DNA of 64,000 nucleotides, taken from assembly GCA_964187785.1 (NCBI GenBank), contig OZ076409.1, forward strand, positions 64,730,001-64,794,000, in the 5' to 3' direction. The position numbers and the translations under genes were made by a program. This DNA comes from Amphiscolops sp. MND2022. Its lineage: Eukaryota. Within the stretch, counting starts at the first letter, position 1, and every line of letters starts with the position of its first letter. This document shows positions 11,201 through 47,600 of the stretch, piece by piece. A model generated the notes under the pieces. The model did no database searches. It was not told the origin of the DNA and was given only the letters and a program-made list of their open reading frames with translations.

Positions 11201-12558
11201 TCTTTGTCTTTCAAAAAATCCGTATTCATCTCTTCATAAACGACTACTGAACAACGAATTTTAGCCTTGTTGATTCTTTTCAACATTGTAATTCACGACA
11301 TGTAACAAAAAATTGACAAAAAATGCATCAAAAGCTAAAAAATTGGAAACTTTTGCAATTTTTTTGGGGTCATTTTTGGGTCACTCTGGGGTCCTTGGTG
11401 TCAACTAAAAATGTCCAGAACTCTCGACAAATACAAATCGCACGAAGCTGAATTTTTGTGAGATGAATTCTATGGGTAGCACCCTTAAAATTAATTATAA
11501 ATTTGGGCGGATATTAACAATAAGAGAGCTGGACACGGATGAGAAAACCGTTTTCAAAAACTTTGAACACACTTTCGCAAGACAACTTTATTGATATAAA
11601 ACATTTCCCAGAATAATGAAATGTCACAGCAAACTGCAGAAAAGATTCCAAATAGAGTAATATTTCTTCTTTGAATGAAGCAAAAAACTTTGTTTGAGGT
11701 TTTTTGTGCAGTGTCAATGACGAGCAATGCGAAAAAAAGACAAAAACGCAGACTAAAAACGGTGCATGCCAATTTGAACGTTATCCTCTTTCTCCCCAAT
11801 TGCGTTTTGAATACCTTATTGTTCAAACGCTCAGGTCATTGGAAGTTCTATTCTTCAAAAATTTTCGTGATTTGAACAAAAATGAGATTAGTTTGTCAAC
11901 CAACGTGCTTTTTTGTTGTTTCATAAAACTTTGGGTGTTTTAGAGACCAATTCCATCAAAAAATGCAGTTATTTCTTCAAAATTGTCTACTATAGATACC
12001 CGGATTAGTCATTGTTGAGTTTTAAACCATTTTATGCAAGGAAGTAGCTCAAAAAAGTACAAAAAACTGCCCAAAAATGTTAGAATAAAAGTGGATAATT
12101 CTGTCGTGGAAAACGTGCTTGGAACCTTGTTTTAGCATTTGGAGTTTTGCATACCTCGTTCTTTCGTTGTTTAGTTGATTGTGTTGGAACGTAGATCGAA
12201 ATCTTTTGGAAAATGTACCGAAATTGCATCAAAATCGACAAAAACTTCAAATTTTTCCACAGTCAGGGTCAATTTGATTTGAGGCATTTTTATTTTACAA
12301 ATTGAACTTATTTCGGACTAAAGCTCACCAAAACAACTAATTTGCCGGGAAATGGTCTTTTCGCCTAATGCCATTTCGCCTAAAGTCATTTCGCCTAACG
12401 TGTTTGGTCACTTCGCCTAATTTTTTTAGGCGAAACGTCTTTTACTTTGGTCACTTCGCCTAATTTTTTTTTCAGAAACGTGAAAAACACATGAAATTGG
12501 AAAACAAATAAATCGTTTAAGATCTAAAACTAAAAAGTGATATAAAATAGAAAACGTG

Positions 12559-12743
12559 CCTCGGATATGTCCCATTCCTTCTAGTGCCCCGCGGCCCCTT
12601 GGGGCCGCTTATGTTCCATCTTGCTAAGCGAGGTCGAACAGGAGCAAAGACCTAGCGGGAACGGAGATCGCGAAGCGATCGTAGTGGGAGCTGGTCTTTG
12701 CGACGGTGAGGGCGAGTGTGCATACACCGCATATGCCCCACAT
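12559..12743. other. GC-rich structured cassette A (copy 1 of 3)
   Basis: Near-identical to 31672-31860 and 32646-32834. Hairpins GCGGCCCC-TT-GGGGCCGC and GATCGC-GAA-GCGATC; long stem GCAAAGACC/GGTCTTTGC. Confidence 0.75.
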
Positions 12744-12880
12744 TTTGATATTTTCGCTTTCAGAAAGCCTTTTTCGAAACATGATCATTTAGACGTTATT
12801 CCCGTTTGGTCAGTAGTAGTAGTAGTAGTAAAAGACTCAATTCCTTTTTAAAGGGTGATACGACATCAAATTGTAATGAG

Positions 12881-15712
12881 TTATGATCTACAAAAAGTAC
12901 ATAGGCATTTCAGGTAGAAACTGCATGAGTGATCAATGTTGAAACAATTTGCAGTTTTATCAGCAAGGAACCGATTTATACAAGACTTGAAAATATCAAG
13001 AGGCATATCAAAAGACACAATTTTCAAATTTATCAGTTCATTTGCTGAACGCGCCGCTCTAATATAGAAATTGTCATTTGTGGAAAAATTGTTGCATTTT
13101 GGAATGTAGAACAGGCCATTCGATGACGAGCGTGTGCATAGGTTGGATCTCATGATATTGTTGTCTAGGTCCACAGAATTGTTACACAACTTCCATAACA
13201 GAATAACGTCGTTTTTCACAATTTGGTAGCATATAGGAAGGATGTCAAGATGTATCAGTGCTGAAACAAGAGAAGAAGTTTTATTGATCCAACGTATTAC
13301 TTTGTATTGAAAATTTTCAAGTTGACGAAGCTGGGTTCTAGTTGGACACCATACAGGTGAGCCATACAGTAAAATAGGAAGAATAAGGGATGAATACAAT
13401 AACTTTTTCCTTTTAGAAGATGTAGAAAATGGAATGTTTCTCTTTAGAAAAAAGAAAACTCTTTTTGATTTTAGGAGCTTAGAATCAACATGTCGTTTCC
13501 ATGATAAGTGGTTAGAGATAATGAAACCAAGGTCATCCATTTCTTCGACAAAGGGAAGAGGATTGCAACCAAGCATCAATTGGTCGGATTTGTTTTTGCG
13601 ACTAAAATCGATAACTTTACACTTTTTAGGGTGAAAGTCAAGATTGTTCAATTCGCTCCATTCAGAAAGACTATTAATGTCGGCTTGAACTGATTGTGCA
13701 TTGAAGTTATTGAAGACCTTAAGATCATCGGCAAAGAGTCGGAATTGGCTGTCTTGTATGCCATCACCAATATCATTTATAAAACATAAAAATAGTAACG
13801 GACCCAACACACTGCCCTGGGGCACACCTGATGTAACAGGTAGGGCCGACGAAATAGATTGATTTATGCGCACACTCTGGTAGCGCCCAAATAGATAAGA
13901 GTTGAATAATTGCAGAAAATTGCTGTCGAAAGAAAATTTTTCAAGTTTTGACAACAACAAATGGTGAGAAACAGAATCAAAGGCCTTTGTGACATCAAAA
14001 TAAACAGCAACGGCATAAGAATCACAATCACAAGAAGCATAAACACTGTCCAGGTAGCTGATCATTTGAGAAACAGTGCTTCTAGATTTCATGAAACCAT
14101 GTTGTTCACGTTTAATCATTCGACTAATTCTAGGGTAAATAAAATTAAACAATATTCTCTCAAGGACAAGCGACAGCTTAGGCAGAATACTAATTGGTCT
14201 GTAGTTGGTAATGTCCGAATGATTTCCAGACTTATGTAGAGGAGTGACAAGTGAAGTTTTCCATTGAGATGGCCAGGTACGGTTCCGTATAATCCAATTA
14301 AATAAATCAAAAGCAAGAGGGGCGAGGATATCAGAACAGCTACTTAGAACAAATGATGGAATATTGTCAGCACCACATGCACTGGAATCAGGGCATTTTC
14401 TCAACAGATCTTCAACATCGGAAACAGACAGTTGGAAGTCATCTAGTTTAATCGAGGGGTTATCAAAGGTCTCAGGAAACTGATGATCTTCTTTCTCATT
14501 GAATACAGACGCAAAATAAGAATTGAACTCTGAAGATTTTTCATGATCGCTATTCAGAGCTTTGGTTTTGTGAAACATTACTGAGGGAAGTGTCTTGCCA
14601 AATCCAAGGTTGCGTAACAACTTGAAACACAGCCTAGAAGATGAAAGATCAAACTGATTTACGAACAATTGTTTGTCTAGTTCAATAGAATCAGAAATAG
14701 CTGTTGTAATTTCTTTGAGTTTGGTAGCTTGCAGGAAAGAACTGTACTTTGACAATTTGCGAAGAGTTGTGTCTCTGGTATTTAGAAGATGAATAGTGTG
14801 AGAAGAATAGTATAACGGCAGTGATAGTCGTTTAGCACGTTTAGTTGCAATGGAGCTGTTTAGCGATGAAGATAGAATCAAATACCACTCTTCGGGATAT
14901 TGACTGTTTGGGATATTGTCGAAACTGACCAGATTGAATAAAGGTTGTAAACAACCATTGAATGAAATCACATTGAAGGATGATCTGGAAAAAACATTCT
15001 TGTAGGAGTTTAAAGACACAGAGGAAGCGAAATCAAAGTATATAGGATAGTGGTCAGAAAATAGAACAGGGCTAATTGACAGGGCTAAACATTGACTATC
15101 ACAGAACACAAGGTCAAGAATGTTTTGATTTTTATGTGTAGGCTCATGAACCATCTGAACTAGGTCTTTTTCAAGAATAAAGTCAAGGAAATAACGTTCC
15201 ATTGAAGAAGTAGAAGAATAGGATTTCCAGTCGACATTTGGGAAGTTGAAATCACCAAGAATGTAGACATTATGGGTACCAGTGTAGCCGAATTGCAGCA
15301 AAATATCAACAAACTTTTTGTAATAGGCTTCCATACATCGGACTAATTCTGAAATAACCACAGAATATTTAGAAGAGTAGTAGGGAGGATTGTATACCAA
15401 TATAAAGAACGAGGGAACATCACTGAGAATTACACAAGCAATGGCGAAACCGAATTCCTCAATAGTAATATCAATTGCACGAATTGGAATGTTGGACGAA
15501 TGGGCAATTAGTAAGCCACCATGTTCACCGCGACTTCTATCAGTGCGCGCAATAGTACGATAAGAGGAACCAATGAAAACTTCTGAGTCAGTAATTTCAT
15601 CATGAAGCCATGTTTCCGTAAGAAAAACCAAAGCAACAGAGTTAGAATTGCACAGATGAACTAAAGTCATACGCTTTTCCATTGGACATATTGATTGACA
15701 ATTCACCAGCAT
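12881..15712 (-). CDS. LINE ORF2: apurinic endonuclease plus reverse transcriptase (943 aa)
   Basis: APE motifs VNCQS, LTETWL, GDFN, LDLVF, SDH. RT motifs NYRPISIL, QHGF, FDVTKAFDSV, GVPQGSVLGPLLF, FADD. Confidence 0.95.
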   Translation of the reverse strand: MLVNCQSICPMEKRMTLVHLCNSNSVALVFLTETWLHDEITDSEVFIGSSYRTIARTDRSRGEHGGLLIAHSSNIPIRAIDITIEEFGFAIACVILSDVPSFFILVYNPPYYSSKYSVVISELVRCMEAYYKKFVDILLQFGYTGTHNVYILGDFNFPNVDWKSYSSTSSMERYFLDFILEKDLVQMVHEPTHKNQNILDLVFCDSQCLALSISPVLFSDHYPIYFDFASSVSLNSYKNVFSRSSFNVISFNGCLQPLFNLVSFDNIPNSQYPEEWYLILSSSLNSSIATKRAKRLSLPLYYSSHTIHLLNTRDTTLRKLSKYSSFLQATKLKEITTAISDSIELDKQLFVNQFDLSSSRLCFKLLRNLGFGKTLPSVMFHKTKALNSDHEKSSEFNSYFASVFNEKEDHQFPETFDNPSIKLDDFQLSVSDVEDLLRKCPDSSACGADNIPSFVLSSCSDILAPLAFDLFNWIIRNRTWPSQWKTSLVTPLHKSGNHSDITNYRPISILPKLSLVLERILFNFIYPRISRMIKREQHGFMKSRSTVSQMISYLDSVYASCDCDSYAVAVYFDVTKAFDSVSHHLLLSKLEKFSFDSNFLQLFNSYLFGRYQSVRINQSISSALPVTSGVPQGSVLGPLLFLCFINDIGDGIQDSQFRLFADDLKVFNNFNAQSVQADINSLSEWSELNNLDFHPKKCKVIDFSRKNKSDQLMLGCNPLPFVEEMDDLGFIISNHLSWKRHVDSKLLKSKRVFFFLKRNIPFSTSSKRKKLLYSSLILPILLYGSPVWCPTRTQLRQLENFQYKVIRWINKTSSLVSALIHLDILPICYQIVKNDVILLWKLCNNSVDLDNNIMRSNLCTRSSSNGLFYIPKCNNFSTNDNFYIRAARSANELINLKIVSFDMPLDIFKSCINRFLADKTANCFNIDHSCSFYLKCLCTFCRS

Positions 15713-15730
15713 ACATCTCAGAGAGTCTAG

Positions 15731-16615
15731 TCAAGTAGATTCAATTTCAACTTCTTTGTTTTGATAATAGAGTTTTAGGTTTCGTATACGGAAATCTTTC
15801 TTGTCTTTATTTTCTGCGTGGATCATATGATATCTTTTGGATAGAATGTTCTTTTCACGTTGGCGATCAGCAGAGGATAAAAGTTTTTTGATGTAGACAC
15901 GATAGTCGAATGTTTGGAGATGGTGACTGCGAGCAAAACAGTGGTTCATGAAGAGAGGATTCGTTGCAGTAACAAGTATTGGACGACATCGTGAACTAGA
16001 ATTCTCTCCCTTATCGGACTCCTTTGTTTTAGAAATCTTTCCCAGTCGGCGAATAGCATTTATATTGCCTTCAGTGCGCAAACCCATGTGCTGAATAATA
16101 TCATCAACCATTTTAGTGTCTTCTTCAACTTGTTTAAAGTATTTTTCTTCTTTTTCAGGAATCCCAGTAATGATAAACTGAGGTTCAGAGGGAGGTTTCT
16201 TGGCATTCAAAACAATATCTCGATAAGAGGGAAGAGAGCTGGTAACAGCCTCTTTGACGTTTTCATTCATGTCAGGTAAGGCATTTTTAATAAGGCCAGG
16301 TACAATTTCAGATACTGAATTTTTAATGGTGACTTGAAAATCGGACAAAATTGAATTCAACTTAGCTTCAGTAAGAGAAGAGACGGCTTCTTCATTGGCA
16401 GTGGGAAGGCACACGTCACAGTTCCATTGGATGTTGGGCTTCTCCCCCAACCAGACAATTTCATCAGAGCTTAGTCCAGCACAGGAGCCATGAACCCAGG
16501 ATGCACAACGGGAACACCCAATACAATTCATATCGTCGTCTTTAATCAACTTCTTGCAGCAACCACATTTGATTGTAGATTTAGAACCACACCTTGGTCT
16601 CATCTTGGGCTTCAT
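15731..16615 (-). CDS. LINE ORF1 with N-terminal PHD finger
   Basis: CxxC...CxxCxxWVHxxC...WxCxxC PHD pattern, followed by IITGIPE/RRLGK/RPILV motifs typical of CR1/L2 ORF1. First ATG at 16615 (the ORF track starts at GTG 16651). Confidence 0.85.
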   Translation of the reverse strand: MKPKMRPRCGSKSTIKCGCCKKLIKDDDMNCIGCSRCASWVHGSCAGLSSDEIVWLGEKPNIQWNCDVCLPTANEEAVSSLTEAKLNSILSDFQVTIKNSVSEIVPGLIKNALPDMNENVKEAVTSSLPSYRDIVLNAKKPPSEPQFIITGIPEKEEKYFKQVEEDTKMVDDIIQHMGLRTEGNINAIRRLGKISKTKESDKGENSSSRCRPILVTATNPLFMNHCFARSHHLQTFDYRVYIKKLLSSADRQREKNILSKRYHMIHAENKDKKDFRIRNLKLYYQNKEVEIEST

Positions 16616-18263
16616 TACATTGAATATGAAACTATTTAATAAGTTTATCACAACAAAAATATTTATTAGGTCATTTCGCCTAATTTTCTTAGGCGAAATG
16701 ACTCAACTAAATTTTTAGGCGAAATGGCATTAGGCGAAATGACCTGCATCCAATTTGCCCACGCCTGAGGCGTTTCAACATTCAAGTCCACAAAGTCCAT
16801 CTATATTTTGACAAAAATTTACCAAAAATAGTGAAAATCGGAAAATTTTCGAAACTTTGTCTTTTTCGATGTCAATTCCGGTTTAAAAAACTGAATTTAT
16901 CTCTTTTCTAAGCATACTGGACATTACGTTTTTTCCTTGTTGACCTTTGTCGATGTTCCAATCCACGAAGACCGACAAAAATTTGGGGAAAAAGCATAAA
17001 GTCATTGAAAAATAGAACATTTTTCGATTTTTGTTTTTTTTCGGTGTTACATGGAGACATTTTCACATACAAACCTGCAATAAACTCTTCGAAAAGCCTA
17101 CTGGACAATACATTTTTTACTTGTTGACCCTTTTCAACGTTCCAATTGACAAAGTCCGTTAAAAATTTGCAGTTAAATGCATAAAATCTTTGAAAAAAGA
17201 AAAACATTGTGGTTTTTGTCATTTTCGGTGTCAATTTGAGATTTGTTTGTTTGAAAAACAGCAATTATCTCAATTATCTCTCCAGAAAAGCCTACTGGAC
17301 ACCGAATTAGTGCCATGTTGAGCGTTTTCAAGAGTGTAATCCACAAAATTCATCAAAATTTTGTCCAAAAATTTTATAAATCGGGAAATTTTTGATTATT
17401 CGTCATTTTCTGGTTTTTTCTTTCCAGCATAACCTCATTCATCTCTCATAATCAACTACTGGACAACAAATTCTTGCCTTGTTGAACCTTTTAACATTCT
17501 AATTCACGTTATGTATCAAAAAAATTGCACTAAAACGTAAAAACTTTGAAATTTTTGCAAACTTTCTCTTTTGGGGGCATTTTTGGGTCATTCTGCGTTT
17601 CTTGGGGTCAACTAAAAAGTCCAGAAGTCTCCGCAAACACAAATCGCACGAAGCTAAATTTATGTGGGTTGCATTCTATGGGTACCACCCTTCAAATTAT
17701 ATATGAGATTGGTGCTTGGCAAATCTTGTTCTATATATCTTGTTGTTGCAGAACTGCTTCTTTCCCGGACTTACTTGCATCGCAAAAAAGTTTTATGGGA
17801 AGACTTCTTTCAGAACTTCCCACTTACACAAGTTTTTTTACCCTTCCTTTGATTATTCTAAATACAGGAAATACAGGTTGGTCTCTCGTTGTTGTGGGCT
17901 GAATTCATGGCACAGCTGTGCTTGCATTTGTAAGAACTTATGCATTTTTTCTAACGCTCCTAATTACGACCTTTTGAAGGCCTTAATTTCAGTTGTTTAT
18001 ATTGCTCCGATTAGCTCTGGGGAATATCTCGGGTGCATAATCGGATTGGCCTTAACGAAAAGCGTCTCTCAAGCCGTGTGGAGCTCGGTGTTCACTCACG
18101 AGGGAAATTTTGAAAAAGACTAAATTGAAGCCCTGTACTTTTAGATGCCGACAACGTCTCAACTTCACTGAATCTCAACCAAGATCTACAAAACATCTAA
18201 ATATTCTACCCTCTCTAAAAAATGGCATTTCAAACTCCTACAAGGAAGCATCCGCTTCCTCAT

Positions 18264-24366: not shown

Positions 24367-25214
24367 GTAGAAAATACTTTACAACAATCCCTACATTCCG
24401 AAAGACCCGAAATAGAACGTGACAGGTGGTTTACTGCGACTTCATCTTCGAGGAACGGGAATACTTTCTGCGTTTTTTGAAAACATCGGGAAAGTCTCTC
24501 AATAACGACAACATCCATCTCAAAATGATCAAGTAGGCAGGTTCCCGATATAAAGAAGTCCGTTTTCGAAATGCAAACCGAAAACGGAATAAAAAGCACT
24601 GGAATCATTCAAAAGTGAAATTTCAGAGGAAGCAAGGTAAAACAGACTACACGACACCGTCAGCGTATCTGCCGATAACAACCTCTAGCTATATCGAAAA
24701 AATTGTGGAAAGATTATTGAATGCCAGGCTGAGCAGCTTCTTCTAAAAATTCAACGTGATAGACGAAGAGCAGCAAAACTTCCACTTCCAGTAGAAAATA
24801 CTTTACAACAATCCCTACATTCCGAAAGACCCGAAATAGAACGTGACAGGTGGTTTACTGCGACTTCATCTTCGAGGAACGGGAATACTTTCTGCGTTTT
24901 TTGAAAACATCGGGAAAGTCTCTCAATAACGACAACATCCATCTCAAAATGATCAAGTAGGCAGGTTTCCGATATAAAGAAGTCCGTTTTCGAAATGCAA
25001 ACCGAAAACGGAATAAAAAGCACTGGAATCATTCAAAAGTGAAATTTCAGAGGAAGCAAGGTAAAACAGACTACACGACACCGTCAGCGTATCTGCCGAT
25101 AACAACCTCTAGCTATATCGAAAAAATTGTGGAAAGATCATTGAATGCCAGGCTGAGCAGCTTCTTCTAAAAATTCAACGTGATAGACGAAGAGCAGCAA
25201 AACTTCCACTTCCA
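24367..25214 (+). repeat. Near-identical 424-bp tandem duplication inside LINE-A
   Basis: 24367-24790 is repeated as 24791-25214; only two substitutions noticed. Confidence 0.9.
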
Positions 25215-26355
25215 CAAGAACACAGTACGGTTGTTGTGTAGGTTGAAAATTGAATGTCAAGAAGTGGGAATGAGCAGAAAAAGTGGCACTTTCATATCCA
25301 TTGACTTCTTAGGAGTTAGAAGCTAATTCATTAAACTGATTGAACGTATTTTGAAAAACCCAAAAGTCAACATAGATATCGGTAATCTGAGAAGCCAACA
25401 CTTCGGAGCCAAAGATGGACTCACAAAAGGTAGTGTGTTATTACAAATTCTGTTCATTTTTTTCGTTTCCGACATGTCCAAAAACCTCAACTGTAAGAAG
25501 TTCAAATTCGCTAGCGATGGAACCGAGACACTGGAACTCAACTCTATCTGAACTGTCAAATTATTCTCAATCAACTGGAACGGTGGTGCAAAAAATGGAG
25601 GATTTCAGTCAATAGTGACAAGATATCAATAACCTACCTCAACACTGAGAAAACGCACGCCCCGAAATTTTTGGCGAGGACTGCAAGGTCACCAGAAACA
25701 CAAGAATCCTGGGTTTGAATGTGGACAACAAACTGAATTTCAACGAACATCTACAGCAAGTAGAAGGAAAAGTTGCTAAACAGCTGAACATATATGAAAA
25801 GTATTGCGACTCTAATTGGGGTCTAAAGCAATCAACGCTCATAAAGTTTTACAAAATTCAAGTGCTCCCCGATTTCTATATGCGGCCCCTGTGTGGGCCA
25901 GGAAACAAGTTCAAGCACTTAACCGAATCCAATACACTGCAATCAAACTTATCATAAGTACAAGTACGAAATTCGACCAGTTGACAGCAGAAATACTGTG
26001 CGGTCTCCCGCCTATGCAATTACAAATTGACATTATCATTATTAAATTTGGAATCATGCTTTCTCAACAGCAGGACATTTTGTAGAAACTGTATCGGAAA
26101 TGGCCTTTGCCAGAAGTAAAAGGTAATGAAAACATCATTGACGCTTTTTATAAAGACACAGGGGCGACAAATTGTTACACGGTGTCAACTTGCTATGAGT
26201 ACTTTAGAAGTTGATGGAACAGAATAATCAAGAACGCGCTCACGACTACCCCACTGGACGGTTCAATCATTCAAACTGAATTGGAAGGAATTGCCTATCT
26301 AAAAACGACAAGTAGTCATCTAGAAAGAACTATCAAACTCCTTTTGAAACGCAAA

Positions 26356-29300
26356 GTTGGAGAACAAGACGTTTCGGCGACACTATGGTGGCGGACTTTT
26401 CGACGACAAAAGTGTCGCTGAAACGTCTCCTCATAGATACGTTTGCTACTTTGTTGCCCAAACGTCCTCAAAATTATTTTTGTTTTACTGTTTTTATATT
26501 TTTTTTATCACAAAACTCAAAATTATGTATTTCAGATGATGGAAAATGGCATGAAACCATTGTTCGTTTTCGAGGAATATTATCCAAGCAGTAGCGAGGA
26601 GGACCAGACGGAAAGTGCTCCAACAACCAAATGTTTTTGCCCAGTTATAAGATCCGGCTCCGCGCACAATCACGGAACCCGAAGATATTAAGTACGAAAT
26701 TCTGGAACATGGTACTAAAAGGCGATCTGATATGTTAACATCCAGTGACGGGTAGTGTTATACGAAGCTGCGCCATAATGAATCTGGTCAGAAAATGTAT
26801 TGGCGTTGTGCAGCAAGGAGCGCAAAATGTTTTTGCAAGGCAACAATTGTGCAGGACGGAAATGAACTTTAGCAAGGACCAAGTCCGCACAGTCACCCAC
26901 CTGATTTTGAACTAGCATCAAACACTATTGTGTATTGTTCAAGTCAAGTCAGAGGAAAGCGGAACGTCTTTGAGCCAGCCGGATCCATTGCCGAGTCTGC
27001 AATAGCGAAGGAAAATATAACATCAACTACACCATCAGCATTAGTTCGAGCCATCAATCGAGCACGTCAAAGCGACCATTAGGAAGAACCAACAGAATTG
27101 TTTTTCAAGTTAAACGAAGAGCACTTTGCTTTTGCTGGCTTTTTGCTGGCGGATATGAATGTTCGGGGTCAACGACATTTCATATTTGCGACTCCTGAGC
27201 AATCAGATCTACTGGGATCTGCTCAACATTTATATGTAAATGGGATATTTATGATCGTACGCAAGCCCTTCATCCAACTTTGGAATATCAATGCTTTTAT
27301 CGCAAGTGGTAGCAAGTTTATACAAGTTCCAATGCTGAATGATCTAATTTCCAGCTGTCGCAAATCCGATTTTGTGGCAATTCTGCGGAAAACAAATGAT
27401 TTGGTACCTGGATTTTCTCCGCTGGAGAATATTGCCGACTTTGAAGCGGCATTATGGACTGCTTCTCGTGTTGTATACCCTAGCATTCAAATGAAATGTT
27501 GTGCGTTTCACCTTTGTCAGGCTATTTATCGAAAAATTACAGATCTTGGTTTGGGAATTCGTTGTCGGAATAATACTCGCACACAGGTTATACGTCAGAA
27601 ATTATTGAGCCTAATATTTGTCCCTGTTGTGTGCGTTTAAGTCGAGTTTAAAACTTTATGGAAACACTTTATTCCTGATCCACATTTTATGCTTTGTTTG
27701 AATACTTAAATAGTTCCTAGTTATCGCATCCTGTTTGGAGTACTACTAATACTACTGAAAGACCTAAATCCTTTGTAATAAAAGGCCTGTGCTGAAAAGG
27801 CGGTATAAAAGTTTTTTACATGGTAAAAAGTAAAATTTCAAGCACGACAGATGCTACAAGAGCACTTAATAAACCAAGTGCATGGAACGATTCATGTCGA
27901 AGGAAAACACTCGATTATGAAGGTAAAAAGAAAGGTCCCTTCTGAATCAGTTGAAGTTATCGAAGACAGATATATTGATTGCTGATAGGTAGCTAGAGTA
28001 GCAGCAGATTCTCTGGAAGTAAGATTCCTGGGTTTTTAATTTGTGACAGGGCTTTACTGGAGAAAGATGGATGAATTTGGAGCTTCTGAGATCTTTAGCA
28101 GGATGGCTAAAACATATAAAGTCTTTAATATTTAGGTCATATTTGCCATGGATGGTCTTATTAGGGAAAAGCATGTCTTGGAAAACAAGATAAAACAACA
28201 TTGGAAGCGTGTATGTTGCAGCAAATTGATCAAGATAGCTTGATAAACCAGTAACCCATTTCAGGCAATTCATGTTGACTAATCCCATTTTACGTCTGTA
28301 AATCAATGAAGGGTACCATATTTGGGAACCAAATAGCAAGACACTCAGTACACACAGACGATAGTAAAGTAGCTTTGTACGGGTACAAACATTTCGAGGC
28401 AGGTTTCGTTTCAAAAACTGGAAAGCCTTCCTAGCTGCAATTAATTTAGTTTGAATATGCTTGTCCCAGAATAAGGTGTCAGAAACCATGATACCCAAGT
28501 CTTTGATAGTATTTACAACTTGTAGTTCGTTGCCATCCAGGAAGAACGGGCCTATTGGTTCTCTATTTTTGAAGTTGACGTTGCTTTTGTCAATATTGAC
28601 TCTCATTAGGTTTTCGCCCGACCAGTAAAGAAAACCGATGATATCATGCTGCATATCAGAAGTTATCAAGACTGAGTGAAGTTTACTGTCATCGGCAAAC
28701 AAGTAACTCGAGGATGTTTTCACTGTTTTGGGTAGATCGTTTATGAAAATAAGAAATAGAAGGGCGCCGAGCACGCTCCCCTGAGGAACACCACTTGTAA
28801 TTTTTGCAGAATCAAAAAGACACCCATTTACGTATACCTTTTGAGATCTTTGATTTAGATAGTATTTGAAAAACACCAAGAAATCGGAGACAAAATTTAA
28901 AGAAGTCTATTTCTGTAGGAGTTTGTGATGAGAGACCCGGTCAAAGGCTTTGAAAAAACCAAAATAGACTGACAAGCTGGGTCCATTTACATCAAGTTGA
29001 AGATACAATTGGTCAAGATAAGGAAGTAATTGCGTAACTGTTGGTCGATTTTTAAAAAAACCAAGTTGTTGGTCACAAATCAATGATCGTATTTGGGGAT
29101 AAATGAAACGAATAATATTTTTTTCAAGAATTAGGGATAATTGAGGCAAATTGCTAACTAGACAATAACTTTCCACATTTTCGGGATTACCAGATTTGAG
29201 AATTGGCTTTATGGTAGAACATTTCCAGAAATCAGGCCACTGTTTTGATTTGATATTGGTAATAAAAAGCTGTGTGACAAGAGGTGCTAGTAGCCCAGGA

Positions 29301-31139
29301 CAGGAGCTAAAAACGAACGTGGGAATTGAACCAGAGTTCGAACAATTCGAGGATGCACTGGAAAGTAATGCTTCAACCATCGAAATTTCGACTGTCATAT
29401 CCTGCAGAAACACTAGCGGATTTTCAGCTATTGGTAAGACTGTTGAGTTGCTTGTTTGGTATACAGAGCTGAAGTAGGAATTGAAGAGGTTAGCGATCTG
29501 AATATTGGTGCTAGCTTTGATATGTTTCCAATGCATCTGGTTAGGAAAATGATTAGGAGAGAATGAGCGCAGGTACTTGAAGCAAGAGCGAATCGAATTG
29601 GGTGATGGACTGTCAATCAAGACAGCTTTGTCCAGTTCGATAGAATTTTGTATGTCGTCCTTCAACTTCTTTTGATATGTTGCTTCATAATTAATTTGGC
29701 AGCTGTGCGGAGCTTAATAATCAAATTTATAGAATGAGAGGAATAGAAATATGGCAACTCAGGTCTCCTGTTAGTTTTGCGATGACAGGATGCATTGATT
29801 GCATTCATAAGCACTTGATACCAGAAGGCAACATAAAAATCAAAAGAGAATTGAAGAAAACTGGAGTTAGGAAAGATCAGAAGATCATAGTAGCGAGAAG
29901 TCAGATTTTGATTGAAGCAGTGAGTGGAGAAAGAAGAAGCTAAATACTTTGATGTTGTTTGAGCACTTTGGTTGGACAAAGGCTTAGGTAAGGAAAACCA
30001 TGCAAAAACAGCAAAGTGATCCGAGTACAGACTATCATCCACACAAACTGTAAAAAGTTCTGGAGTTGAAGTCAATATGAAATCGAGTATGCTTCCGGAC
30101 TTGTAAGTGGTTCGAGAACAAGTGGCAGAAGATTTAAACTTTCGACTTTTTCCAATATTGCTTTAGAGTAATCAGAGTGTGCAGTAATTGTTGCCCAACA
30201 GACGTCCACCAAGTTAATGTCCCCAAGGATTGTGAAAGAATTCGAAGTTACAAGATCGTCGTTGAAGTATGAGGAAATGCAGTCTATTCGTGAATCGGCT
30301 TGAATACGGTAAGGAGAATTTGTGGGCGGGTTATAAATCAGCAGAAACATGTGAGAGCTGTATTCGTCAAATAAGTAGATGGCAGTTGAGTAATCGTTTA
30401 GCTTTGAAACTTCTGAATGGTTGAACTGAAATTCTTTTTTGGTAGCTATCAAAACCCAACCATGTTCCCCAGTTAATCGATCTTGTTTGGAGATTGTTGT
30501 ATAATTGCTTTTTAGTGGAAAAAATTCAGAATCCTTAAGTATTTTTGATATTATTATTTATGACAGCCCCATACGAACCAACAATGATAGCGAAGGATAT
30601 CACAGACGTTTTAATTCAAAAGCTGGGGGACGCAACTCAGTGCAGTTTTACTTTTTGATACAGCTTCTTGCTGGAGAAGCAAAGTTGGTTACGATAACGG
30701 CGGAATTGTTGACGAAAGGACATGTGTACCGATATCAACGTAAAGAATCGAAAGAAGTTCAAGCTGGTATCATCACTTTGTGGAGATCCTATAAGGAAGT
30801 TTCCAATACAGCTACTCAGTTATTGAAAGACATTTCGTTCTGTATACATCGATTTGTTATTTTTGACAGTAATTTGTTATTTTTGATTTTGTTGATAATT
30901 GTTGATGTTTGTTGATGATGATTTGTTGATGTTCGATAATTTTGTTGATATCCATTCTTTACGAGTTTTAATACATTCCATCCTCTTAACATAATCCAAT
31001 AGTAATTCGTATTTAGTTTTAGTTTTTATGTTTTAGAGGACGTTCCGGCAACAAATACGTTTCGGCGACACTTTTGTCGCCGAAATGACCGCCGCCATTT
31101 TGTCGCCGGAACGTCTGTCACCGAAACGTCCAGAATCCC
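26356..31139 (+). mobile_element. Decayed Mutator-like (MULE) DNA transposon interrupted by a LINE
   Basis: Transposase motifs ADFEAAL and CAFHLCQ (27098-27640), and RTNNDSEGYH after 30550. Inverted GACGTTTCGGCGACA-type arrays at ~26363-26470 and ~31040-31139. Possible TSD AACGCAAA/AACGCAGA. Confidence 0.8.
27741..30550 (-). mobile_element. 5'-truncated, frameshifted CR1/L2-group LINE (LINE-B), related to the intact LINE
   Basis: APE motifs IYNPP, LGDIN, SDH and RT motifs FKAFDRV, GVPQGSVLG, LFADD in broken ORFs. Microsatellite tail at 27741-27756. Confidence 0.88.
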
Positions 31140-31319
31140 AACGCAGAATATGCGTACCAAATTTGGCCAGCGGAGAGTCTGCTCTGCCCTTGTCGAGTAG
31201 ATACAGAATTAGTCCTGTACTACTTATTCTTTTGCCCGCTGTACGAGCAGTTTCGTGCGCCCGAACTTGCTACAGGAAATATCTATTCACTTACCTGTAC
31301 CACGAACCTGATGAATTTC

Positions 31320-32231
31320 GGGTGGGCGGAAATAGATCGAAGGAACGGGATCGAAAATCAGAGTTAGTCCTCAGGTCGCCATACCAAATTTTTGAATGGG
31401 ATCGAAACAACTCGGATCGAAATTTTTATAACTTAGTCTGAGATGTTCACATGATAAATGGTCACTTGACTTAATGCCATTTGGCTTAGTCATTTGGCTT
31501 AATACAATTGGTCACTTGGCTTACTTTTTTTAAGCTAAGTGTCTCGGGTATTGGTTACTTGGCTTCAAGTCATTTGACTTAAAACCACTTAGTTGAAAAC
31601 ACGTGGCAGATTTTGTCGAATTTCACTTCATAACGTAGTCAGCGTATTATTATAACATGTCATATCAAGTACCCCTCGGATAAGTCCCCATTTCCTCTAG
31701 TGCCCTGCGTCCCCTCGGGGCCGCTTGTATTCCCATCTTGCTAAGCGAGGTCAAACAGGAGCAAAGACCTAGCGGGAACGAAGATCGCGAAGCGATCGTA
31801 GTGGGAGCTGGTCTTTGCGAAGGTGAGGGCGAGCGTGCATACACCGCATATGCCCCACATTATGATATTTCCGGGAGTTGACATATTTATTCCTTGAGTT
31901 GGAATGGAGTTGGCCTAATTTTGTGGTCACTTGGCTTAAAATTTTTAAGCCAAATGACTCGACGAAAAAATTAAGCCAAATGGTATCAAGCCAAGTGACT
32001 GGTAACCGTTCACATACCCCTAGGGCCCTGAATGCAGGAGTGAAGCGAATCGGAGCGACGTGCCATATGGTCATGCCTCAACGTTGCTACTTGGCGAAGG
32101 GAGCGAAGCGAGCGAGCCATACAACAAATACGATAAAATTCGACCGCATTCCATTCGATCCCTGCAATTCGATCAAAAGGTTCGACCTTTTTCCTTTCGA
32201 CCAGAAAAATTCGACCTATTTACAGCCACCC
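31320..32231. mobile_element. Non-autonomous Mutator-like MITE inserted in the 3' end of LINE-A
   Basis: TIRs GGGTGGGCGGAAATAGATCGAA / TTCGACCTATTTACAGCCACCC. 9-bp TSD ATGAATTTC / ATAAATTTC. Confidence 0.75.
31453..32007. mobile_element. MITE with GTCAYTTGGCTTAA terminal arrays, carrying cassette A
   Basis: Inverted TTGGCTTAA/TTAAGCCAA arrays; perfect 8-bp TSD GTTCACAT at 31445-31452 and 32008-32015. Confidence 0.85.
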
Positions 32232-32424: not shown

Positions 32425-32850
32425 GGTAAATGGTCACTTGGCTTAATGCCATTTGGCTTAAAGTCATTTGGCTTAATCTAATTGGTCACTTGGCCTAATT
32501 TTTTTAAGCTAAGTGTCTCGGGTATTGGTTACTTGGCTTCAAGTCATTTGACTTAAAACCACTTGGTTGAAAACACGTGGCAGATTTTGTCGAATTTCAC
32601 TTCATAACGTAGTCAGCGTATTATTATAACATGTCATATCAAGTACCCCTCGGGTATGTCCCCATTTCCTCTAGTGCCCTGCGGCCCCTCGGGGCCGCTT
32701 ATATTCCCATCTTGCTAAGCGAGGTCAAACAGGAGCAAAGACCTGGCGGGAACGGAGATCGCGAAGCGATCGTAGTGGGTGCTGGTCTTTGCGAAGGTGA
32801 GGGCGAGCGTGCCCACGCTGGATATGCCCCACATTTCAGTTTTCTTATTC
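32425..32850. mobile_element. Truncated second copy of the TTGGCTTAA MITE with cassette A
   Basis: Near-identical to 31453-31860; right TIR missing. Confidence 0.75.
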
Positions 32851-33003
32851 CTTTAGATCCTAGGCAGTGGAGCTCTCAGGATCTTGTGTCAAGGATGTCC
32901 AGTTTGTAGATATTAATGATTCAGATTGTAGGAGCACCTAGGACCAGTTTGTAGAATTCTACAAACTGGTATTTTACAAACTGGACCTATTTCGAAAGAA
33001 CAC

Positions 33004-33330: not shown

Positions 33331-33980
33331 GCGGCGATTTCGCCAATGGACTCTGGGGTCAACGCTTCACACTCTGGGGTCATATTTTTTCGTTGTCAAA
33401 ATCTTTAATCCATTGACCAAATCATCAGAACAGCTTGACGATCTGCAAAAATATCACTGAGTCTTGTTTATATATAGAAAGTCTCAATCAGCCCCTATAT
33501 GAGGGGGATGTTTATCACATGATAAGCAGTTGTGTTTTGTCAGACAACGAGTGTCTGAAATGCTAAAATATCGATCGAGAAAACTCAATGTTGAAAGTAG
33601 TGTCGGTCGGCTATTTTAGTGGGGAGACTTCGAATATGAGAAAGAAATACCATGTGTTCGTATTCCAGCAGCTTGGAATTGGGAAAGAATTATCATGTGT
33701 TCGTACTCTTTGACCAGTTTTGAAACTGGGAAAGAAAACCATCTGGAGATAAAATAGAAAAACTAAGAATTTTCCCGGGATTTTTTCAGGAAGGTTTGTT
33801 TCTAACTTAATTCTCTTGGTTGTTAGAATTGGTTGGAATCGAAAGTTCGCAAAATCGTTTGCTGATTGATTCTCTTTTGTTTCCTTTCAGTCGTGGTCTT
33901 GTATTTTGAATGTATTCAAGCGTGATGCAGCATTATCAAGTTTCAGAATTCTGAAGTCATGAAATCTTTTCAGGAATGAC

Positions 33981-34718
33981 ATGTCGAAAATATCATCTTA
34001 TCGCTGCATAGAGTGTGGTGTACGGGTCAACGATTTGTTCATGAAGGGCGCAATGGTCGAGGAACTCAAACCAATTACTTGCAAGCAGTGCAACAGTCTC
34101 GTGGATCAATATGTCGAGTTTGACTCAATATTAGTAGTTCTTGATCTGATGCTTCTGAAAAGGCGCGCTTTCAGCCATGTCCTTTTCAACATTCCCATGA
34201 AAGCGGGTGTCCTTAAGTTATGGGTAATGATGTTGTTTGCCCATGCCTATTACAAGTGGTGGCGAATGCAGGAAGCTGAGAGTCTTTCAGACGTAGGAAA
34301 AAATAGTGAAACGAGAACTAAAACTGATTATAGTAGGCTTGAACTTCAATTTTATGCGCTTTTGCTGCAAAAATTGATTGAAGACGTATTTTATTATGCA
34401 ATAATGGCAGCTTCGGCATCTGCATTAATCAAATGTTCCGTTCTTCACGTTGATTTGACAACATACCTGAAATCTTTGTTGTTTGGGAAGTTCGCCAGAC
34501 TATATGTCTTCGGTGTCTACATTTGGTCTTCTCCGGCGGAGTTATCAATGTGTATATTACTTCTTGAGACATATGTACTTGTTTGTAGATATATTTTCAT
34601 CGCTTGTTGCTGGACTTCGAATAGAATCCAGATGAAATCAATTATCCTATTGTGCATTAGTGTTGCTTTTGAGTACTTTCTTGATAAAAATTTGAAGTTG
34701 TATTCCTTGATTATATGA
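33981..34718 (+). CDS. ARV1: Protein ARV1 (ER sterol/lipid homeostasis and GPI-related membrane protein), 245 aa
   Basis: Arv1 homology domain YRCIECG...CKQC...DQYVEFDSILVVLDLMLLKRRAFSHVLFN followed by hydrophobic TM segments. Probable 5'UTR intron at 33794-33890. Confidence 0.9.
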   Translation: MSKISSYRCIECGVRVNDLFMKGAMVEELKPITCKQCNSLVDQYVEFDSILVVLDLMLLKRRAFSHVLFNIPMKAGVLKLWVMMLFAHAYYKWWRMQEAESLSDVGKNSETRTKTDYSRLELQFYALLLQKLIEDVFYYAIMAASASALIKCSVLHVDLTTYLKSLLFGKFARLYVFGVYIWSSPAELSMCILLLETYVLVCRYIFIACCWTSNRIQMKSIILLCISVAFEYFLDKNLKLYSLII

Positions 34719-35818
34719 CATTTTCTTTCCTTTGATTTAGTATTGTTTTACATTGATTCAAGTCCTTCCTTATATGCAAACACGAAATTAAATGACTTTC
34801 AGATCATTTTTTACTGATATTCGGCCTGGTTCAACAGATATGAACAAAACATCAAGAAACATCGATAATTTACTCAACTTTACTTGAATACTATAAAATT
34901 TTATTCCATTGTACGGTGTGAACTGCTAGCCCAATGTTGGTGGATCAGATAGTGGAATTTTTGGGCATCAAATAACTGGTGGAAAATTTTGCCGATTATC
35001 TGATTGACTCTTGTCGATGATTAGGATAATCGTTTTTCACTGAGATGATGAACTCGCTGATTTTTTGAGTAAATGTTTACAGCATATTTTTATTTTCCGC
35101 CCATATTTCATATGGGAAAGGAATTATTTAAATCAAACGGTTTTTTTCTACAAAATTTGCCAAGCACCAAATTTATATTTAACTTTAAGGGTGTTACCCA
35201 TAGAATTCAACTCACATAAAGCTTCGTGCGATTTGTTTTTGTGGAGATTTCTGGACTTTTTTAAGTTGACCCCAAAATGAGAAAATTTCTATTTTTTAAC
35301 GTTTTGAGGCAGTTTTTGTCAGTTTTTTTGATAGTTATCGTATATTTACACTTGCGATAAGCAGTTGTGTTTTGTCAGACAACGAGTGTCTGAAATGCTA
35401 AAATATCGATCGAGAAAACTCAATGTTGAAAGTAGTGTCGGTCGGCTATTTTAGTGGGGAGACTTCGAATATGAGAAAGAAATACCATGTGTTCGTATTC
35501 CAGCAGCTTGGAATTGGGAAAGAATTATCATGTGTTCGTACTCTTTGACCAGTTTTGAAACTGGGAAAGAAAACCATCTGGAGATAAAATAGAAAAACTA
35601 AGAATTTTCCCGGGATTTTTTCAGGAAGGTTTGTTTCTAACTTAATTCTCTTGGTTGTTAGAATTGGTTGGAATCGAAAGTTCGCAAAATCGTTTGCTGA
35701 TTGATTCTCTTTTTTTGTTTCCTTTCAGTCGTGGTCTTGTATTTTGAATGTATTCAAGCGTGATGCAGCATTATCAAGTTTCAGAATTCTGAAGTCATGA
35801 AATCTTTTCAGGAATGAC

Positions 35819-36556
35819 ATGTCGAAAATATCATCTTATCGCTGCATAGAGTGTGGTGTACGGGTCAACGATTTGTTCATGAAGGGCGCAATGGTCGAGG
35901 AACTCAAACCAATTACTTGAAAGCAGTGCAACAGTCTCGTGGATCAATATGTCGAGTTTGACTCAATATTAGTAGTTCTTGATCTGATGCTTCTGAAAAG
36001 GCGCGCTTTCAGCCATGTCCTTTTCAACATTCCCATGAAAGCGGGTGTCCTTAAGTTATGGGTAATGATGTTGTTTGCCCATGCCTATTACAAGTGGTGG
36101 CGAATGCAGGAAGCTGAGAGTCTTTCAGACGTAGGAAAAAATAGTGAAACGAGAACTAAAACTGATTATAGTAGGCTTGAACTTCAATTTTATGCGCTTT
36201 TGCTGCAAAAATTGATTGAAGACGTATTTTATTATGCAATAATGGCAGCTTCGGCATCTGCATTAATCAAATGTTCCGTTCTTCACGTTGATTTGACAAT
36301 ATACCTGAAATCTTTGTTGTTTGGGAAGTTCGCCAGACTATATGTCTTCGGTGTCTACATTTGGTCTTCTCCGGCGGAGTTATCAATGTGTATATTACTT
36401 CTTGAGACATATGTACTTGTTTGTAGATATATTTTCATCGCTTGTTGCTGGACTTCGAATAGAATCCAGATGAAATCAATTATCCTATTGTGCATTAGTG
36501 TTGCTTTTGAGTACTTTCTTGATAAAAATTTGAAGTTGTATTCCTTGATTATATGA
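35819..36556 (+). pseudogene. ARV1: ARV1 duplicate with premature stop (Cys34 TGC>TGA)
   Basis: Near-identical to copy 1, but has TGA at 35918-35920 plus one Thr>Ile change. Confidence 0.85.
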
Positions 36557-37182
36557 CATTTTCTTTCCTTTGATTTAGTATTGTTTTACATTGATTCAAG
36601 TCCTTCCTTATATGCAAACACGAAATTAAATGACTTTTAGATCATTTTTTACTGATATTCGGCCTGGTTCAACAGATATGAACAAAACATCAAGAAACAT
36701 CGATAATTTACTCAACTTTACTTGAATACTATAAAATTTTATTCCATTGTACGGTGTGAACTGCTAGCCCAATGTTGGTGGATCAGATAGTGGAATTTTT
36801 GGGCATCAAATAACTGGTGGAAAATTTTGCCGATTATCTGATTGACTCTTGTCGATGATTAGGATAATCGTTTTTCACTGAGATGATGAACTCGCTGATT
36901 TTTTGAGTAAATGTTTACAGCATATTTTTATTTTCCGCCCATATTTCATATGGGAAAGGAATTATTTAAATCAAACGGTTTTTTTTACAAAATTTGCCAA
37001 GCACCAAATTTATATTTAACTTTAAGGGTGTTACCCATAGAATTCAACTCACATAAAGCTTCGTGCGATTTGTTTTTGTGGAGATTTCTGGACTTTTTTA
37101 AGTTGACCCCAAAATGAGAAAATTTCTATTTTTTAACGTTTTGAGGCAGTCTTTGTCAGTTTTTTTGATAGTTATCGTATAT

Positions 37183-44614: not shown

Positions 44615-47600
44615 GTAAGTATTTCATTTGTCAACAGTTTTGAACTACATTCTTGCCCACTTTTTTTCGAATTCTAGCGACACTCAAATCTATGCCATTC
44701 ACTTAGCTCAAGATCTTTGTCGAATCTATCGTGTTGTTCAGATCTTTCTAATCTTTGTTCATTGTTTTCAAAAAGAAATCGGTGGCTGTTTTTAGATGCG
44801 TATCATCCACGAATGTGGCTACAACGAAGACGACTGTCTCAAGTATCGCCCAGTTGTACACAGCAACACGGTGCAAAGTTTGGTCGCTATTATCAGGGCT
44901 ATGAGCCATCTAGGTTAGCAAGGGGGACGTCATACAGAAATAATGTAATACACATCTAATTTTCAAATAACAGAATTCACTAAGCTGAAAACGCGTGTCT
45001 GATTTTGTCGAAATTATTATAACGTAGTCAGCTATGTTCACATGCCCCTAGTGCCCTAAATGCAGGAGCGAAGCGGAGCGACGTGCCATATGGCCATGCC
45101 TCAATGTTGCTACTTGGCGAAGGGAGCGAAGCGACCGAGCCATACAACAATTTTGCTAACCTCTTGAATAAATCAAGTTCAATACATCTTGGCTGCAACA
45201 GCACTAAAAGCTAGTAATTTGAATTCTGCTGTTTGAAATCTTTTTGTAAATTCCGTTGTATGAATAGTCACCAGAAATTAGATGTGTATTACATTATGTC
45301 TGTAGTAGCTGACTCGTTAGCAACACTTCCATTTATGGTAATCTTTTGTTTGATGGTGATGGATATGTGGCGCTTTTCGTTTTCAGGGATCAAATTCACT
45401 AATGCACAAACTGAAGAAGACGCCAAAGAGTTTTTCATCATGGCTGCCAATCCAGAAATCAATCAAGAAATGTGCTCAATCATGACAAGGCTCTGGGAAG
45501 ACCCTGTTAGTGCAAATTGTCGATAATTATTCTGTAGCCACATGAACCTGATTTTTTGGTGTGCGTTCATTTCACTCCGCGTTGATTTCACCCCACGTCT
45601 TAATTATCTGTAAACTCTGATGCCTACTGCCTATAAGTTGTCCCAGCGTTGATTCGATTGACAGGTTCTTGCGGTAAATAAAAAGCGGAACACGTGAATT
45701 TTTGCCGAGCATAGCACGATCCATAGTTGAAAACTCGATTACGCAACGAGAGCTCCATTTTAAACTATAAATTGGTGGAAAATGTTCTGTGCCTCGTTGG
45801 CAAGTTTTACGTTTCCGATGCGTAAAATTTTTGTGTTGCGTTTTCGTGGTTCACATAGCTAGCGTCGTTTGATTATTATTGGTATTTAGATTTAAGACGT
45901 TTTTAGTCGGCGCATTTTAGTAGAAAATGTGCCCGACTATTACAGTGGGTAGTTTTTTTTTTTTAGACACGAAAGTGCCACTTTTCTTTCTGTCTTTTCT
46001 TTTTGTATTTTGTTCAGTTCATTTCTTCAACAACTTGGCGAACCTGAGAAGCGCGTCCAAAACGAAAAAGAAAACAAAACAAACAAAACCTCGACAACAC
46101 ACTAACGATCTCCCCTAAGCCTCCCCCCCCCCTCACTTTTTTTCGGCACTATGCGACTTTTTTTGAAACTTTTTGGATTGCACCAAAGGGTCCCCTCTTT
46201 ATTTGTTTCGATATTTTGAAACACAATGGATGTCAGAAAATTCCAAAGGGTCCCCCTTTTACATTTTTCGGCACTGTGACACTGTTCAAAAATCACATTT
46301 TAAAATTTTTTTGGGCAATTTTTTTCAGTCCTTAAAGGGTCCCCCCTTCAATTTTTTTCATATTTTGCAACCAGCTGGAGTTTCACAAAGCCCAAAGGGT
46401 CCCCTTTTACATTTTTCGACACTGCGACACTGTTCAATTCATTTTTTTTTCATATTTTGCCACCAGCTGGAGTTTCACAAAACCCAAAGAGTCCCCCCTT
46501 TTACAATTTTGAGCCTTAGATATAGCGCCGACTTTGGCCGTTCTCGGCTTGTTCTTTTTGCACTAAGATTGAAACTCTGTGACAGCGGTAATTAATCTGA
46601 GACGCATTTGAATAATTAAAACGTGGGTGAAAGGATTGTGAACCGTTTTTTTCATCTACTACTTCAACTATATTATTAGCATTTTGCAATAAACATTGGC
46701 TACCAAAGGTCTGTTTAAACCCAAATACTTCAAATTGTTTTTTTAAATGCCATTGAACTCAGGAAGAAAACTTTCTCATTCTTGGCTGATTAACAATTCT
46801 ATCATTCTTTAAAAGCTTCGTGGTTTTAGTACGCATGGTCCCTTTTACAAGAAAAAAGGTAATAACAAAGAAAAGGAAAAATTACATCTTTCGTTCGGAT
46901 AACGTATAAGAAATTTAGAGCTTGTATAGATTGAGCTCTTTGAGTTCCTACTGTATACGCGGGTCCTCTTCAAGGTGAAAAACTTAGCGCCCTTTCATAA
47001 CTGATCATAGCTGTTTGTGTTCTAGGACTTACAGAGTTGTTTTCTGCGAGCACGTGAGTACCAGCTGAACGACTCGGCGTCCTACTATCTGAACGCATTA
47101 GACAGAATCTCCACTCCTGACTATATTCCCACCGTGCAAGATGTGCTGAGAACCAGGGTGAAGACCACTGGCATCGTCGAGACTAGATTTCTATTCAAAA
47201 CTCTTAGCTTCAAAATGATAGATGTCGGCGGACAACGCTCTGAGCGCAAAAAGTGGATCCACTGCTTCGAAGGTAACTCCAATCTTGCTTTCCCGATTTT
47301 TAGTTAGCGTTTTCGTTTTTTTTTTGCATTGCTCGTAACAACGTTGCAGATGTTATGGCACCCATGAAAGTTGAATTTCGATCGTTGTTAGGTCATTGAC
47401 ATTGCAAAAAACGCTCAAACGAAGTTTTTTCTTGCTTTCATCAAATAGAAATATTACTCTATTTGGCATCTTTTCTGTGTTTGGTTTACTCTCTAGCTTG
47501 CTGTGTTATTTCATTATTGTGGGAAATGTTTTAAATCAGTAAATTTATCTTGCGAAAGTGTATTCGAAGTTTGATGCCGCAAAACGGTTTTCTCATTCAC

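Follow-up and report, generated by a model that had tools for sequence, protein, structure and literature searches.

How does a GC-rich segment of about 185 bp come to lie, nearly unchanged, inside MITEs whose terminal arrays are built on different motifs? The locus examined here raises this question for a segment, referred to below as cassette A, that recurs in a 64-kb window (the whole 64,000-nucleotide stretch of DNA that was analysed). The window is rich in repeats and holds an intron-containing G-alpha gene, Arv1, remains of LTR and non-LTR retrotransposons and a MULE remnant. A first-pass annotation had proposed that the segment is an unclassified small mobile unit, an ssDNA-processing signal or a structured RNA, which travels within MITEs or targets them. 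On the sequence evidence set out below, cassette A is MITE cargo that bears a probable ssDNA structural signal.

Cassette A and its secondary structures

A homology search of the window places cassette A, always on the plus strand, at 12559..12743 (copy 1, whose homology with copy 2 extends to about 12756), 31674..31860 (copy 2) and 32648..32834 (copy 3). The three cassettes are near-identical, as first described (90-94% alike), although two of the starts had been given as 31672 and 32646. Pairwise identity is 92.5% (1 vs 2), 90.4% (1 vs 3) and 93.6% (2 vs 3), and copy 1 matches the other two at 92.0% over 200 nt and 90.5% over 189 nt; a fourth full copy is absent from the window, as judged by nhmmer and a covariance model. 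The GC hairpin that had been reported is present at 12591..12608 (plus strand; 8 bp, 2-nt loop, with one pair broken in copy 2), and is followed at 12618..12634 (plus strand) by a 7-bp hairpin that is invariant in all three copies and has an outer extension only in copy 1. Also present is the 9-bp stem at 12644-12652/12693-12701 with its GAA-capped hairpin; the stem has three matches in the window and none in 100 shuffles. Direct repeats bound the cassette as claimed, at 12563..12577 (5′) and 12729..12745 (3′) on the plus strand of copy 1, but they are modest: 15-17 nt long and imperfect, they were equalled by 172, 736 and 17 of 5000 shuffles for copies 1-3, respectively, and so are significant in two of the three copies, the 5′ repeat of copy 2 being mutated.

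On the minus strand, CTAG stands 6 nt past the GC hairpin in every copy, an arrangement that had been likened to a Helitron 3′ end. In the available text of PMC4067079, Helitrons are defined by a 3′ CTRR inserted between A and T, a 5′ TC and a palindrome of 16-20 nt about 11 nt from the end. In cassette A, an 18-nt palindrome and an internal CTAG lie 6 nt apart, and the recurrence of this pair in all three copies fits the capture of a Helitron 3′ end on the minus strand. We nevertheless consider such a capture extremely improbable: homology between the copies runs on for 22 nt beyond CTAG, the next base is A and not T, there is no 5′ TC at the minus-strand 5′ boundary, the spacing of 6 nt departs from the canonical one, and the G·A fold described below sits on the opposite strand. 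A Helentron or HINE was rejected as well, since no inverted repeat longer than 5 bp joins the ends of cassette A and the end repeats are direct, which leaves no subTIRs of 12-15 bp. Elsewhere in the window, a repeat family at 37182-38313 and 49928-52007 has within it a tRNA-like segment (Rfam tRNA, 30.8 bits at 50033-50104) and tandem repeats, ends in a GC palindrome, and is HINE-like or SINE-like.

Folded as RNA, the plus strand is more stable than its shuffles for copy 1 (z of -3.25) and copy 3 (-3.54), but not significantly so for copy 2 (-1.01); the signal is weaker when it is folded as DNA (-2.65, -1.74 and -1.84 for copies 1-3). The RNA values for copies 1 and 3 would suit a structured RNA (a ribozyme, a SINE head or a divergent small-RNA gene) captured by a MITE, as would the finding that phage attC-like sites, discussed below, bear the arm motif on the mRNA-sense strand; moreover, purine-rich symmetric loops, such as GAA/GUA, occur in RNA too. 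Still, a captured RNA seems very unlikely to us. The best Rfam match of the cassette, to an lncRNA, scores 13.3 bits against a gathering score of 50, and ribozyme and Pol III descriptors, run on both strands without a positive control (those for HDV-like and hammerhead ribozymes also on a circular mimic), detected neither an A or B box nor the core of an HDV-like, hammerhead, twister or pistol ribozyme, so that the structured RNA of the annotation matches none of the known kinds searched. In addition, d(GCGAAGC), the cap sequence of the central arm, melts at 76.5 C, compared with 39 C for r(GCGAAAGC), the one RNA counterpart quoted in the available text (PMC13037366). Relaxed HDV matches on the circular mimic (19, 0 and 4 for copies 1-3) have no CC core and do not occur in every copy, a tRNA-derived SINE was rejected in view of the missing A and B boxes and tail, and suspected resemblances to SRP RNA, HDV, pistol and REP sequences found no support in Rfam or the descriptors. 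Separating RNA from ssDNA motifs by computation is described as hard (PMC5737381, available text).

Covariation, which had been proposed as a check, is not significant among the three copies: it was found at one of 46 modelled pairs, a result equalled by 340 of 500 shuffles, with 41 of the 46 pairs invariant. The lone double change, in the last hairpin, was dismissed as covariation, both sides being CpG-type transitions and the shuffles not being beaten. The answer to whether stems are less variable than loops changes with the definition used (six tests, with p from 0.006 to 1.0): confidently paired positions are less variable in two of three folds (p=0.03, 0.006 and 0.81), and MFE-based tests gave p=0.46, 1.0 and 0.81.

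The MITE shells and the probable exchange of their interiors

Copy 1 is housed in a MITE (shell 1) that spans 12347-16751 and is flanked by an 8-bp TSD, AATTTGCC, at 12339-12346 and 16752-16759. Its left arm, a subterminal array with a 15-nt period, lies at 12347..12463 (plus strand), and its right arm has been displaced to 16669..16751 (plus strand) by a minus-strand non-LTR retrotransposon at 12813..16668, which has a PHD ORF1, an APE-RT ORF2 and a TAC-repeat tail and is flanked by a 5-bp duplication, GGTCA. The APE-RT frame of this LINE is uninterrupted over 949 aa and its 5′ leader is very short; a 99%-identical protein cluster counts 69 members, which suggests recent activity, and a search of viral contigs with ORF2 gave no loci. 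Just upstream of shell 1, at 12260-12315, is a degenerate copy of a third type of arm. Copy 2 sits in a complete MITE of the second kind (shell 2) at 31453..32007 (plus strand), with the 8-bp TSD GTTCACAT, inserted into the head of another cassette, B1. Copy 3 is preceded by a shell-2 left arm and spacer at 32425..32647 (plus strand), about 96% identical to those of copy 2, and is followed at 32895..32996 (plus strand), at the same distance from the cassette as elsewhere, by a right-arm-like array of the third motif (CAGTTTGTA), with no TSD match between the two.

The long TIRs of the shells are 15-nt-period subterminal tandem arrays, inverted at both ends, and the TSDs measure 8 bp for shell 1 and the shell of copy 2 and 9 bp, with one mismatch, for the shell of B1, none being found for copy 3. 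A TSD of 8-10 bp is expected of a MULE foldback MITE, and in their 8-bp TSD and 15-nt-period arrays the shells match the Muta1-like type; TSD length alone would also fit hAT, P or Merlin. Muta1 itself is described with TSDs of 8-9 bp and 12-bp subterminal repeats separated by 3-4 bp linkers, and non-autonomous MULEs as carriers of internal cargo (PMC5499845, available text). A decayed MULE at 26367..31143 (plus strand), interrupted by a LINE, has inverted ends of a similar style, with arm motifs that differ from those of the shells and a TSD of its own that is unclear; it lacks the cassette and retains part of a transposase (PF10551, just under the cut-off at E 4.9e-6), which had no match among 427 longer candidates.

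The annotation had treated the two shells as different MITEs. This did not stand, as both arms of shells 1 and 2 are homologous in register (65-70% identity, equalled by 0 of 500 shuffles), and the CGCC versus GGCT difference between them comes from one repeated motif that has changed in concert. Cassette A, which has the same place and orientation in each shell, is set off from these arms: between shells 1 and 2, identity runs from 65% in the left arm to 43% in the left spacer, 92.5% in the cassette, 48% in the right spacer and 69% in the right arm. Since the adjoining spacers align little better than shuffles (257 of 500 were as good for the left spacer and 23 of 500 for the right), cassette A is a sharply bounded module, most likely traded between MITE families by recombination. 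That the cassette is distinct, and has not simply aged with its shell, was thereby upheld. Within shell 2, moreover, copies 2 and 3 differ at 12 of 187 positions in the cassette and by seven substitutions and one indel in the 223 nt of arm and spacer. From the divergences within shell 2 and between shells, the cassettes are about equally distant from one another, whatever the shell, and the faster divergence of the cassette than of arm and spacer in shell 2 does not suggest strong purifying selection.

These figures bear on the possibility that cassette A is an ancestral, cis-acting interior under selection, whose fold aids MITE copying (in gap-repair synthesis, excision efficiency or single-strand protection, for example) and whose AT-rich spacers have drifted. 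Its constant position and orientation in homologous shells, the invariance of 41 of the 46 modelled pairs and the G...A form of all four non-Watson-Crick elements of the central arm (rough post hoc chance 3e-9) agree with this reading. We regard it as unlikely, however, as the cassette outpaces its flanks in divergence within shell 2, covariation does not rise above the control (one of 46 pairs, 340 of 500 shuffles) and a relative, cassette B, forms small hairpins only, with folding z of 0.3 or higher. The annotation had itself named, as the outcome that would speak against a mobile unit, a cassette that is just the ancestral interior of one MITE lineage, shows no covariation and never occurs outside it. 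In the window, covariation among the three copies is indeed not significant and no copy lies outside MITEs, but a mere ancestral interior misfits the divergence pattern.

Five of the eight private changes of copy 3 fall within 9 nt near the 3′ end (p=4e-4), after which come an unrelated spacer of similar length and the third-motif arm. Three of the five clustered changes make an imperfect hairpin perfect, and palindrome correction by template switching would perfect imperfect hairpins. Because the left arm and the third-motif right arm share no TSD, copy 3 is probably a chimera.

The same features have to be weighed against an independent origin, in which cassette A would be a non-autonomous ssDNA element that targets MITE interiors and is moved by an HUH enzyme or a tyrosine recombinase encoded elsewhere, with its short direct repeats and one-strand fold serving its movement. 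The sharp left boundary and the 15-17-nt terminal direct repeats are what such an element would show, Replitrons are described as having a terminal hairpin, with short direct repeats at the termini or close to them (PMC10288648, available text), the same loop fold is present at attC-like sites and mobilization regions, and the relatives A and B occupy several different shells. Independent movement is nonetheless improbable in our view, and the mobility suggested by the annotation is not borne out within the window: each of the three copies occupies the same relative site within related MITE arms, the left junction is one and the same in copies 2 and 3 and the right boundary varies between pairs, neither an empty site nor a free copy was found in the 64 kb, and the direct repeats are significant in two of three copies only. 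Moreover, none of the 143 window ORFs of at least 82 aa encodes an HUH, RepHel, tyrosine recombinase, TnpB or GIY-YIG protein, and the hosts given for Replitrons in the available text are plants, algae and protists (PMC10288648).

Cassette B, a distant relative of A, is found at two places. B1 lies at 32008..32127 (plus strand), with its head continued at 31417-31452, in a MITE at 31320-32231 whose 9-bp TSD has one mismatch; nesting there has three levels, as this MITE holds B1 and the head of B1 has received a cassette-A MITE. B2 lies at about 45008..45152 (plus strand; also delimited as 45036-45150) and includes a tandem-GA hairpin at 45122-45136; its shell assignment is uncertain, as two inverted-repeat pairs interleave. 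The spacer before B2 (44978-45032) is the shell-2 left spacer found before A, about 80% alike, and modules therefore recombine at more than one point. Cassette B has the head and tail motifs of A, and all five window matches of the 10-nt head motif are at A or B (1.29 expected; 1 of 100 shuffles). Standard scoring gives A and B a marginal similarity (equalled by 1 to 141 of 1000 shuffles); with cheap long gaps, a scoring picked post hoc, after the motifs were seen, it was equalled by 0-1 of 2000 shuffles for B2 and by 1, 3 and 92 of 2000 for B1; B loci took the top eight places among 3146 window tiles. The folding z of cassette B amounts to no signal, and its patterns gave no loci in viral contigs. 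Introns of the G-alpha gene (44348-55270) contain B2 and several repeats. Two tandem duplications were also seen in the window, one of 1.8 kb at 33521-37200 (99.6% identity), which duplicates an intronless Arv1 frame, has a 5′-shortened second copy and is either recent or an assembly artefact, and one of 430 bp at 24367-25220 (99% identity).

The central arm and its core in other DNA

The central arm of cassette A, at 12641..12704 on the plus strand, consists of Watson-Crick stems broken by G·A-type loops, with one bulged T at 12653. From the base, the loops are GA/GA (12642-43/12702-03), GGGA/GGGA (12657-60/12686-89) and GGA/GTA (12663-65/12681-83), below the cap GCGAAGC (12670-76). Every internal loop, on both sides, and the GAA cap begin with G and end with A, the regularity for which the post hoc chance was given above. 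Sheared G·A pairs are known from NMR work to close 2x2, 3x3 and 4x4 DNA loops, and the predicted loops fit a sheared-G·A fold on the plus strand only, as the minus strand would carry pyrimidine loops. A G·A-aware score of our own puts the sites of A1, A2, A3 and B2 in the top four places among the 291 C-GNA-G sites of the window, and all four arm substitutions among the copies of cassette A retain a G..A loop or a wobble pair. GNA-type hairpin caps are reported from the phage G4 origin, ssiA and N4 promoters (PMC13037366, available text). The arm defines a motif, a chain of G·A loops able to form on one strand only, to which neither Rfam nor the usual folding programs assign a score.

The arm core was sought elsewhere with a strict pattern in which only the flanks of the 3x3 loop and the cap are fixed. 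It returned 18 metagenome, 9 GTDB and 7 viral loci, the GTDB number being about the chance estimate, and a looser pattern gave 31 viral loci against 36 for a flipped-cap control, so that raw counts are not enriched. Pairing tells more. With loci grouped into families by a rule of our own, and with G·A and G·G allowed in the inner arms, the families with symmetric, pairable inner arms numbered 5 out of 21 for viruses (chance 0.027, p=2e-4), 3 out of 10 for metagenomes (p=1e-3) and 1 out of 7 for GTDB, compared with 1 out of 19 for the flipped-loop control (p=0.40), the direct comparison of viral families with the control giving p=0.11. A second G..A/G..A loop and a stem come next in 4 of the 10 metagenome families. 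Across unrelated loci the unfixed arms of the core pair above chance, with stems that differ yet are complementary. The core is taken here as a common fold with different stems rather than as evidence of descent, since similarity beyond about 40 nt was never convincing.

Some of these loci belong to mobile-element DNA. The core lies beside a NikA/MobC gene (L136), near ArdC (L128), at the non-coding end of an IS110 element, antisense to the transposase (L125), and at attC-like sites between co-oriented phage ORFs, on the ORF-sense strand (L152-L154, L176). Many other matches are in coding DNA and were judged to be due to chance, and one is in a group II intron. Recombination of attC by the integrase uses the bottom strand (PMC2727003, available text). 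The position of the motif on the ORF-sense strand and the lack of an integrase in all five attC-like phage records, three of them incomplete, disfavour a simple integrase link. Two phage contigs (L225:1201-6040 and L226:2089-2410) carry several attC-like sites between short co-oriented ORFs, and neither record yielded an integrase. A long chain of G..A/G..A loops was also seen in a repeated non-coding element several hundred bases in length (L122, L124, L127, L128, L135, L146); this element has one copy in a Methanomicrobiales genome and no Rfam match.

No full-length homolog of cassette A was found outside the window. Exact cassette A patterns gave no loci in viral or metagenome contigs, and blastn of the cassette returned 5 plasmid and 19 phage records, none with E below 2. 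Taken by itself, the 15-nt GAA hairpin has at least 121 viral loci, with no homology past the hairpin among the viral matches listed. In large-virus contigs, GAA-capped hairpins and GA-rich runs form the basis of repeats dispersed through non-coding DNA (L003, L051, L053 and L067, on one 403-kb viral contig, and L160 and L164). The literature covered, mostly outside subscription journals, holds no account of cassette A or of the composite motif, although supplementary drawings of PMC5737381 may bear on its novelty.

The ssDNA-type signal of the annotation is plausible, given that the plus strand carries an arm of G·A loops and that the fold of this arm recurs in the DNA of mobile elements. What is surprising in cassette A is this predicted fold with its prokaryotic parallels; its role as a signal and a mobility of its own are putative. 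A bolder proposal is that the G·A arm is a functional signal, which prokaryotic mobile-element sites and a family of small elements of animals (A and B) have in common by convergence or transfer, and that an unnamed ssDNA-acting enzyme (HUH, tyrosine recombinase or primase) reads this signal and brings the cassette, by moving or copying it, into the interiors of transposons, as a parasite or helper of MITEs. We put it forward as doubtful; if it were true that an enzyme of an animal genome reads the arm, a prokaryote-style ssDNA signal would be tied to animal transposons.

Proposed origin and spread, and known counterparts

Capture of cassette A from an ssDNA-using element, followed by its spread through gap-repair template switching, is an account to which we give an even chance. 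Cassette A would be a passenger of non-autonomous foldback MULE elements, in which a MULE transposase, presumably paired with these shells, acts in trans to cut and paste the whole MITE, cassette included; the 8-bp TSDs, the tandem subterminal arrays and the MULE remnant nearby speak for such movement. The central arm, being built like an ssDNA signal, points to a single capture, in the manner of Pack-MULEs, from an ssDNA-based element; no donor was found in the viral, metagenome, plasmid or phage searches. The mosaic pattern is observed directly, and template switching or gene conversion during excision-gap repair could have produced it, joining the arms of one MITE family to the interior of another. 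Possibly, the stable one-strand fold favours switching near the edges of the cassette.

Support for carriage as a passenger comes from arms that are homologous in register around a cassette of constant place and orientation, from copy 3, with its shell-2 left part, clustered 3′ changes, right arm of the third type and lack of a TSD, and from the recurrence of the arm fold in mobile-element DNA. On the other side, the four of four fold-keeping arm substitutions and the less variable paired positions (in two of three folds) could mean selection, which tells against passive carriage; there are only three copies, in one 64-kb window, and the nearby MULE remnant has no cassette. The end direct repeats of cassette A are not accounted for by carriage as a passenger. 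The interiors of MITEs are usually viewed as inert. A module common to families with different transposase-binding motifs shows that interiors are traded, and cassette A offers a marker for measuring template switching.

Several known systems resemble cassette A in part. Helitrons and HINEs likewise have a GC palindrome followed by CTAG on one strand; in cassette A, unlike in these elements, CTAG is not terminal, and there is no A|T or TT target and no subTIRs. Replitrons, too, have a hairpin and short direct repeats near the ends (PMC10288648, available text), the repeats of cassette A being modest and imperfect; cassette A has no Rep gene, no independent insertions seen in the window and an animal-like host. 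The mini-hairpin ssDNA signals of the G4 origin, ssiA and the N4 promoter also have a hairpin with a GNA cap and a sheared G·A pair (PMC13037366, available text); they have a known primase or polymerase partner and none is known for the arm of cassette A, which has three additional internal G·A loops. The attC-like phage sites (the L129 family, L152-L154 and L176) share the AC-GRA ... GCGAAGC ... GTA-GT core. Integron attC sites have the core sites RYYYAAC ... GTTRRRY on one long stem, and cassette A, whose sequence lacks these ends, was rejected as an attC site. The non-coding regions of mobilizable elements and IS110 (L136, L128, L125) share the core and a second G..A/G..A loop, a likeness limited to about 40 nt (best CM scores of 14-17 bits among 51 loci). 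Finally, Muta1-like foldback MULEs and Pack-MULEs have, like the shells, TSDs of 8-9 bp, a short terminal motif, subterminal repeats of about 15 nt and unrelated cargo; in contrast to theirs, the cargo represented by cassette A is not a recognisable gene fragment, is shared at more than 90% between families whose arm motifs differ and shows a predicted G·A fold on one strand.
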